A model generated the notes under the pieces. That model did no database searches and was not told the DNA's origin. It saw only the letters and a list, made by a program, of their open reading frames with translations. A DNA stretch of 64,000 nt from Escherichia coli (lineage in GTDB: Bacteria > Pseudomonadota > Gammaproteobacteria > Enterobacterales > Enterobacteriaceae). Shown piece after piece: positions 32,723 to 32,939 of this stretch. The stretch lies in the NCBI RefSeq assembly GCF_003334765.1, contig NZ_QOWT01000002.1, one strand, 5' to 3'. The position numbers and the translations under genes are program-made. How positions within the stretch are numbered: the first letter of the stretch is position 1; each line of letters begins with the position of its first letter.

Positions 32723-32939
32723 CTTGTTAATGCCTTACTTTTAGTCGCTTTATTGCAGGTGAGATTTGCGCGGCATCAACGGTAACACTTAAGTAACAAC
32801 ATTTAAATAATGTTTATAAATTATATTCTAATTTTAGAAACATTATAATTTCGTTGATTAATTATAGGGTTATTAGAAATGAAGGGATTTTTAGCATATT
32901 GACCTGACGGCAGCAGTCCGCCAGGTCAGCGTCGTAATA

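Follow-up and report, generated by a model that had tools for sequence, protein, structure and literature searches.

The 217-bp spacer between yojI and mqo lies at positions 32723-32939 of a 64-kb stretch of the E. coli chromosome, which we refer to throughout as the window. The yojI stop codon, TAA, occupies 32942-32940 and the mqo start codon, ATG, occupies 32722-32720. Both genes are on the minus strand, so transcription that reads through from yojI enters mqo in the sense direction and not, as the original prediction had it, antisense. Of 5,426 complete E. coli genomes, 5,420 have a match, 95-100% identical, to the 461 bases around the spacer, and mqo and yojI are the annotated genes in every one of those matches, MG1655 included. 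For the spacer, the MG1655 coordinate (NC_000913.3) equals the window coordinate plus 2274032, placing the equivalent stretch at 2306755-2306971.

The AT-rich region had been delimited exactly. Its GC content is 33.6% overall and 18.9% in the core at 32790-32895, compared to a window mean of 52%, and the lowest-GC 100 bp of the entire 64 kb (17%) begin at 32783, inside the spacer. The AT-rich string that was first quoted corresponds to 32802-32853 and is 11.5% GC. At the other end of mqo, the 3' end of the gene carries a REP-like hairpin pair without a U-tract; 3' hairpins lacking U's are the local norm.

Table 1. Features of the yojI-mqo region, in window coordinates.
Feature	Position	Strand	Basis
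yojI coding sequence (microcin J25 efflux ABC transporter)	34583-32940	-	ORF list and RefSeq annotation
yojI 3' stem-loop: 11-bp stem UGACCUGGCGG / CCGUCAGGUCA, one G.U, 7-nt loop	32900-32928	-	Folding and covariation
G-poor AT-rich tract from hairpin to mqo core promoter; candidate rut-like, H-NS-bound or UP-like DNA	32810-32899	-	
Ancestral mqo regulatory module (promoter, operator, leader), common to Citrobacter	32723-32875	-	Identity to 13 Citrobacter sequences
ArcA-P operator: three direct repeats, 11-bp spacing, -39 to -8	32779-32810	-	PMC3798270 supplements, coordinates converted
18-bp ArcA box TTGTTACTTAAGTGTTAC	32799-32782	-	PMC3798270
Putative -35 hexamer TTTAAA; 17-nt spacer to -10	32807-32802	-	Sequence read against mapped TSS
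Putative extended -10 TGT-TACCGT; -16 to -8	32787-32779	-	Sequence read against mapped TSS
mqo TSS (G); 49-nt 5' UTR	32771	-	PMC3415461 supplement
Alternative best-match promoter: TTGATG (32779-32774), 16-nt spacer, TGCAAT (32757-32752)	32752-32779	-	PMC3946193 Table 2
Leader motif UCACCUGC, +10 to +17; probable FnrS pairing site	32762-32755	-	Complementarity and conservation
Shine-Dalgarno core AAGG, in invariant block AGTAAGGCAT	32736-32733	-	100% identity to 13 Citrobacter over 32739-32730
mqo coding sequence (malate:quinone oxidoreductase)	32722-31076	-	ORF list and RefSeq annotation

A mapped, ArcA-repressed promoter lies upstream of mqo

A genome-wide TSS study placed the start of mqo at NC_000913.2 2304825 on the minus strand, with a matching upstream sequence that ends AAGTGTTACCGTTGATGCCG (PMC3415461). 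By ChIP-seq, sigma-70 produced an aerobic-only peak here (199.8 vs -17.6), centered at 2304822, or window position 32768 (PMC3688515), and sigma-70 occupancy at mqo was reduced anaerobically in the ArcA study as well (PMC3798270). That study described both an ArcA box, ttgttacttaagtgttac, scoring 20.5 bits, and a three-repeat site, TTATTTAAATGTTGTTACTTAAGTGTTACCGT, which corresponds to window positions 32810-32779. We located the TGTTA repeats of the box on the minus strand at 32798-32794 and 32787-32783, 11 bp apart and identical to the published sequence. In vivo, ArcA occupancy peaked at 2304831 by ChIP-chip and at 2304821 by ChIP-seq (NC_000913.2; window positions 32777 and 32767), and deleting arcA raised mqo mRNA 31.8-fold under anaerobiosis (PMC3798270). 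The mqo site as published combines a ChIP peak with a PWM match; in the literature examined, we found no DNase footprint for mqo itself. All three marks of the ArcA regulon are thus present at mqo, the box repeats in the sequence and both occupancy and ArcA-dependent expression in published data.

Reading the sequence against the mapped start, we infer the -35 and extended -10 elements given in Table 1, together with a possible UP element considered below. Upstream of mqo, 37 of the 38 Enterobacteriaceae regions compared contain the pattern TG.TA[AC]CGT, in addition to the window copy, with the free position being either T or C, as expected of an extended -10. Promoter prediction had been proposed as a check on the AT-rich region; a promoter/terminator scan returned no minus-strand promoter in the spacer. 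The scan misses the real mqo promoter because its -10, TACCGT, matches at only three of six positions.

The best hexamer match reported in PMC3946193 lies slightly further downstream, with TTGATG and TGCAAT separated by 16 nt. If this were the main mqo promoter, transcription would start near 32745, and the conserved CACCTGCAAT block would be a -10 region and not the sRNA site discussed below. The deep conservation of CACCTGCA, and its fixed distance of 17 (+/-1) nt from the TACCGT block, hint at a constraint at the DNA level that would suit such an arrangement. However, 32771 is the sole mapped TSS, and both the sigma-70 peak and the ArcA site, at -39 to -8, agree with it. Moreover, outside Escherichia and Citrobacter the TTGATG hexamer is no longer conserved (Enterobacter, Lelliottia and Leclercia), and the last three positions of TGCAAT vary (AAA, ATT, ACT, GAA), including the critical final T, whereas CACCTGC is fixed. 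We therefore regard this second arrangement as improbable and take the promoter that starts at 32771 as that of mqo.

The mqo-proximal spacer is shared with Citrobacter and the yojI-proximal end is specific to Escherichia

Guided by protein sequence, a scan that took one genome per species yielded 80 mqo loci. Among these, only the Escherichia loci (E. coli, E. whittamii, E. albertii and Escherichia sp. E1V33) have yojI next to mqo, at a distance of 207-217 bp. The two genes are 1.7-3.1 kb apart in Citrobacter, Enterobacter, Lelliottia and Leclercia, and the DNA between them contains the mgtE magnesium transporter gene and, in most cases, a divergent gene for a SulP-family permease. Thus, yojI sits directly upstream of mqo in Escherichia because the mgtE and SulP-family permease genes are absent there.

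Comparison to 13 Citrobacter sequences divided the spacer in two. Identity is about 0.3, or chance level, over 32939-32880, rises at the AATAACC near 32875, reaches 0.8-0.96 over 32845-32775, and is 0.8-1.0 over 32745-32723, with a value of 1.0 in the Shine-Dalgarno block. Citrobacter therefore keeps the mqo module although its upstream neighbor gene differs. The inverted repeat next to yojI, in contrast, lies in the roughly 60 bp (~32939-32880) that are specific to Escherichia and is absent from Citrobacter and Enterobacter; in other genera, yojI is followed by unrelated hairpins or REP-like repeats.

The AT-rich tract is conserved regulatory DNA

The tract between the hairpin and the mqo core promoter contains three perfect TATAAT hexamers on the minus strand (32866-32861, 32847-32842 and 32825-32820), with no mapped TSS at any of them. 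Immediately upstream of the core promoter, a run of only A and T extends from -37 to about -60 and could act as a UP element. Genomic SELEX showed that the mqo-yojI spacer binds the RpoD holoenzyme alone in vitro and contains an H-NS site (PMC3946193); in the literature examined, we found no in vivo H-NS peak or hns phenotype at the spacer. The original prediction had described an AT-rich promoter bound by nucleoid proteins and had pointed to published ArcA and H-NS datasets as the place to look. That description is supported by the SELEX data on RpoD holoenzyme and H-NS, the ArcA ChIP data and the mapped TSS, and both the ArcA ChIP peaks and the H-NS SELEX mark do fall in the spacer. Curvature analysis had been suggested as well; a crude wedge model gave moderate peaks only, near 32890 (99.9th percentile of the window) and near 32830 (98th percentile), and it ranks eight further sites of the window above these.

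A GC content of 17-19% is extreme for E. coli, and together with the H-NS mark and several TATAAT hexamers that have no TSS it might suggest a horizontally acquired remnant, non-functional or foreign, silenced by H-NS and playing no part in the control of mqo. The comparative data make this very unlikely. All 13 Citrobacter sequences align from about 32875 downstream at 0.6-0.9 identity, the block at 32845-32800 is conserved above typical intergenic DNA, and Enterobacter, too, has kept a block of AT-rich DNA ahead of the same -10. Within E. coli, the tract is found in 5,420 of 5,426 genomes at 95-100% identity. Because the mqo-proximal spacer aligns with that of Citrobacter, we conclude that the AT-rich tract is conserved regulatory DNA and forms the upstream half of the documented mqo promoter.

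The mqo leader contains a probable FnrS pairing site

Downstream of the start site, the leader carries a motif, TTTCACCTGCA, that is conserved well beyond the remaining region. Its core, UCACCUGC, is perfectly complementary to nucleotides 1-8 of the FNR-activated small RNA FnrS, GCAGGUGA, as taken from the MG1655 annotation. Of 44 Enterobacterales loci, 38, Serratia included, carry CACCTG 38-51 nt ahead of the mqo start codon, and a Pantoea locus in which it precedes the protein match by about 100 nt brings the count to 39 of 44; among 36 non-Enterobacterales loci (Pseudomonas and Burkholderia-type), none has CACCTG within 120 nt upstream of mqo. These counts are over mqo loci. Two single-base variants of the motif occur, both of them C-to-U changes that still pair with G. 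In 37 loci, the motif follows the -10 block after a constant gap of 17 +/- 1 nt, while the sequence of the gap and the distance to the ATG vary.

Other explanations for the motif were considered and set aside. Sigma-54, CRP, NarL and Cra-type sites were checked by eye against CACCTGCA, with no convincing match. An 8-codon frame that starts at the ATG at 32776 and runs through the motif was dismissed, as that ATG precedes the TSS and Enterobacter does not have it.

We then compared the motif with the leaders of five FnrS-target operons, which are either listed in PMC3688515 or otherwise taken as FnrS-regulated. The identical 8-mer is present in adhP at -39, a 7-mer of the seed complement in folE at -21, and a 6-mer in folX at -7; the gpmA and maeA leaders are without a seed complement. 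A further listed FnrS target, eco, which happens to lie in the 64-kb window, has no CACCTGC in its leader. The predicted energy of the FnrS-leader duplex was not significant relative to shuffled leaders, 31% of which equal it. Because duplex energy is unremarkable, the support for the site comes from its conservation and its recurrence in known targets.

Published expression data are compatible with such a site. The mqo gene is FNR-repressed, with RNA-seq showing a 6.85-fold increase in an fnr mutant (PMC3688515), and it has been named a putative FnrS target (PMC10993149), although it is missing from the 11 operons given as 'known' to be FnrS-regulated (PMC3688515 Table 5). Judging from complementarity and conservation, FnrS probably pairs with the mqo leader.

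A stem-loop follows the yojI stop codon

At the other end of the spacer, the inverted repeat begins 11 nt after the yojI stop codon. The original prediction described it as a 7-bp stem, and those arms are real (32900-32906 and 32922-32928), but the stem is longer: it comprises 11 bp, with arms at 32900-32910 and 32918-32928. The single A.C mismatch on the plus strand corresponds to a G.U pair in minus-strand RNA. We calculated a folding energy of -20.7 kcal/mol for the hairpin in the window and of -20.7 to -23.4 kcal/mol across alleles, and a 101-nt fold containing the hairpin has z = -3.4. On the minus strand of the window, hairpins of at least 11 bp number 9, versus 0.65 in dinucleotide shuffles; the exact pattern of the yojI hairpin occurs at one site in the window and in 0 of 100 shuffles. 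The hairpin thus exceeds chance expectation.

We also asked how the stem varies among 8 distinct Escherichia alleles. In these closely related sequences, all 88 of 88 pair cells remain paired. Two stem pairs change on both sides, with pair 2 being G-C, A-U or U-A and pair 9 being C-G or U-A. Three other pairs go from G-C to G.U through a C-to-T change in the 3' arm, and these preserve pairing only in minus-strand RNA. The loop sequence, by comparison, differs in nearly every Escherichia lineage. The pattern is consistent but modest, given 8 related sequences, and points to selection on the hairpin as an RNA structure in the yojI transcript.

If the repeat were instead a DNA palindrome bound by a dimeric protein that regulates mqo or yojI, both arms would likewise be kept under compensatory change. 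Several observations make such a site extremely unlikely here. The three one-sided C-to-T changes, which arose independently, leave A.C mismatches on the other strand; because the resulting G.U pairs form only in minus-strand RNA, these changes speak for an RNA structure and not for a DNA palindrome. In addition, the element lies some 130-157 bp upstream of the mqo TSS, the arm sequence shifts between species (TGACC becoming TAACC or TTACC, for example), neither ArcA nor sigma-70 has a peak centered on it, and it is missing from Citrobacter, which retains the remaining promoter.

A small ORF of 28 amino acids on the minus strand (32977-32891), which overlaps both the end of yojI and the hairpin, was dismissed. 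A search of Rfam 15 over 32300-33400 (E <= 10) returned best matches of 15-25 bits, compared to gathering scores of 45-80.

Possible roles of the yojI stem-loop

In the window, the RNA runs on from the hairpin as AUAUGCUAAAAAUC, and its tail, AUAUGCUA, has 3 U in 8 nt; the common allele reads AUAUUCUA, with 4 U in 8. The T-tract had been called weak from the start, and it is: a terminator scan of the spacer reported nothing. Because it has no U-tract, the yojI hairpin is not a canonical intrinsic terminator.

It could nevertheless be that the hairpin releases RNA polymerase on its own, as a Rho-independent terminator of yojI that functions despite its weak T-tract. The stem is stable, GC-rich and 11 bp long, it starts 11 nt past the stop codon, and compensatory changes conserve it; the 4 U's in the first 8 nt of the common E. 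coli allele and the UC-rich tail of E. albertii, AUCCUUUCUUUCC, also fit. We consider this unlikely, however. The 3-4 U's in 8 nt are broken by G, C and an A5 run, on top of the blank terminator scan, and in published work stem-loops without U's mark processed 3' ends that depend on Rho (PMC6061677). The REP-like hairpins at the end of mqo itself lack U's too, and such local hairpins need not be terminators.

Most likely, the yojI hairpin is a 3'-end protective structure or a weak terminator, with Rho-dependent release taking place downstream; these roles of the hairpin and of Rho are ones we infer from the form of the stem-loop and from the RNA that follows it. In 78-nt windows, that downstream RNA has a C/G ratio of 3.0-3.7 and a G content of 4-5%, lower than anywhere else in the window. 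Its C content, however, is no more than 14-15%, little for a rut site. We found no mapped yojI 3' end, and the supplements of an E. coli 3'-end study mention neither yojI nor mqo (PMC7815308). A literature search on yojI and termination gave nothing specific.

A REP/BIME identity for the hairpin was also considered and rejected, since each of 5,419 E. coli genomes has the element just once (E <= 10). Nor does it fit the REP consensus.

Discussion

Our analysis indicates, with good confidence, that the yojI-mqo spacer combines two modules of an ordinary kind, a yojI 3' stem-loop and an ancestral mqo promoter region. This reading brings together sequence features, conservation and covariation with the published TSS, ArcA and sigma-70 data and the in vitro binding of H-NS and RNA polymerase.

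On the mqo side, transcription starts at 32771 from a sigma-70 promoter in which the -35, TTTAAA, would be weak and the -10, TGT-TACCGT, extended but poor. The very AT-rich tract upstream probably aids RNA polymerase and would bind H-NS as well. At low oxygen, phosphorylated ArcA bound to the three repeats from -39 to -8 would shut out RNA polymerase, and FnrS pairing at the leader probably adds post-transcriptional repression of mqo. If the FnrS site is genuine, the anaerobic shut-off of malate:quinone oxidoreductase is a two-layer switch, with ArcA and FnrS as its layers. On the yojI side, the end of the transcript would fold into the stem-loop, which, without a U-tract, most probably acts in 3'-end protection or as a weak terminator; Rho would remove any polymerase that gets past it, within the untranslated, G-poor, H-NS-bound tract and ahead of the mqo promoter.

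The idea in the original prediction that the hairpin may terminate yojI and insulate mqo is plausible as far as the stem-loop goes, which appears to be under selection as yojI-sense RNA, but, without a U-tract, it needs another mechanism. We tentatively raise, as a possibility we lean against, that the Escherichia-only stem-loop and the G-poor, H-NS-bound tract together form a lineage-specific insulator, which arose after the mgtE and SulP-family genes were lost (or in a lineage that never gained them). Were this so, the insulator would define the yojI 3' end, and read-through polymerases would be cleared by Rho short of the mqo promoter. It would also prevent mqo from escaping its two layers of anaerobic shut-off, the one imposed by ArcA on the promoter and the other by FnrS on the leader.

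The mqo promoter, TSS and ArcA operator, and the binding of H-NS and RNA polymerase, are already present in genome-wide datasets, and the novelty of these elements is essentially nil. What the analysis provides is a base-by-base alignment of the published mqo promoter data with the sequence, by which what looked like an AT-rich oddity can be recognized as conserved DNA, the upstream half of an ordinary regulated promoter. For annotators, it adds an unannotated stem-loop at the yojI 3' end that seems to be maintained by selection and fails the definition of an intrinsic terminator. The stem-loop and FnrS additions are modest, and neither would surprise a specialist.

Compared to known systems, the yojI hairpin resembles intrinsic terminators in having a stable, GC-rich stem a few nucleotides after the stop codon, but it differs in the U-run, with 3-4 U's where about 5 or more in 8 nt are called for. 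It is closer to the Rho-dependent 3'-terminal stem-loops of Dar and Sorek (2018; PMC6061677), being stable, just past the stop codon and without a U-rich stretch, and being followed directly by G-poor RNA with more C than G; the downstream tract is just 14-15% C, however, and membership in this class is by resemblance only. Like REP/BIME elements, the hairpin is extragenic, at a gene 3' end and without a U-tract, but it is single-copy, and in Enterobacter it is the yojI flanks that carry REP-like repeats instead.

The remaining comparisons concern mqo. With a GC content of 17-19% and an H-NS mark in genomic SELEX, the spacer is like other H-NS-bound, AT-rich DNA upstream of promoters, although mqo is a conserved core-metabolism gene and not foreign DNA. 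Of the FnrS targets adhP, folE and folX, it is adhP whose 8-mer mqo shares, at a nearly equal distance from the start codon (-40 vs -39); the mqo site differs from FnrS targets in lying 40 nt upstream of the ATG and not at the ribosome binding site. Finally, mqo is itself listed among the sigma-70 promoters repressed by ArcA-P, alongside icdA, acs and sdhC (Park et al., 2013; PMC3798270). Like those promoters, it has an operator, composed of the 18-bp box and a third direct repeat, that overlaps the -35 and -10, and at mqo there is no difference from the class, as the site is the published mqo one.

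The junction between yojI and mqo

The window derives from a strain other than MG1655 (L001, the reference locus of our comparison): its YojI differs at one residue and its eco-mqo spacer (about 30474-31076) falls 113 bp short of the one in NC_000913.3, while the yojI-mqo spacer is identical to that of K-12. In Citrobacter and Enterobacter, a gene for the magnesium transporter MgtE lies between yojI and mqo, accompanied in most of these loci by a divergent SulP-family permease. Neither gene is found there in Escherichia, and its yojI-mqo spacer is therefore a lineage-specific junction.

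The small second hairpin at the end of yojI, GCCGUU-GCCCG-GACGGC, is the same in all Escherichia sequences but for one base that differs in one E. coli allele; it is not kept in Citrobacter. Nothing points to expression of the 28-aa ORF in this region. On the far side of mqo, both REP-like elements lack a U-tract.

Features in and around the yojI-mqo interval
Feature	Position	Strand	Remark
mqo leader motif UCACCUGC	32755-32762	-	leader +10 to +17; deeply conserved
Promoter-like match GTAACA-18-AATAAT	32782-32811	+	antisense, directed to yojI 3' end
Three perfect TATAAT hexamers	32866-32861, 32847-32842, 32825-32820	-	inside AT-rich tract
IHF-core-like AATCAACGAAATT	32847-32859	-	one mismatch to WATCAANNNNTTR
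28-aa ATG ORF	32891-32977	-	other frame; overlaps yojI end and hairpin
Small second hairpin	32944-32960	-	within last yojI codons
REP-like hairpin, 15-bp, GCGCCACATCCGGCA...TGCCGGATGTGGCG	31035-31073	-	directly past mqo stop (31076)
Second REP-like repeat	about 30995-31030	-	3' of mqo
Intervening DNA, yojI-mqo (mqo loci of the species scan)	L010 3079-5722; L008 4355-5791; L022 3119-5813

Promoter-like and IHF-like sites in the AT-rich tract

The three TATAAT hexamers have poor -35 partners and no mapped transcription start site; they may represent cryptic, promoter-like sequences such as H-NS silences. The match on the opposite strand, which shares bases with the ArcA operator, probably arises simply from AT-richness. 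The IHF-like site departs at one position from the IHF core consensus, WATCAANNNNTTR; the orthologous position in Citrobacter reads TATCAACGTATTA, a perfect match, and the ATCAAC block is conserved.

Oxygen regulation of yojI and mqo

According to published tables, yojI has its own start site at NC_000913.2 position 2306690 (promoter region at about 34600-34650 of the window), shows a sigma-70 peak only under aerobic conditions, and rises 5.0-fold in an fnr mutant. It is thus oxygen-regulated, in parallel with mqo.

For mqo itself, the leader motif is perfectly complementary to nucleotides 1-8 of FnrS, the FNR-activated sRNA. In 37 loci (32762-32787 in the window; orthologous positions in L002-L039, further mqo loci of the scan), CACCTG keeps a constant distance of 17 +/- 1 nt from the extended -10 block, TGnTACCGT, with variable sequence in between, whereas its distance to the mqo ATG varies between 38 and 51 nt. 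This constant gap is not accounted for by an sRNA site on its own. The same FnrS complement recurs in the leaders of FnrS targets, as an 8-mer in adhP, a 7-mer in folE and a 6-mer in folX, which, together with its presence in the mqo leader, suggests that mqo is under direct FnrS control in addition to that by ArcA.
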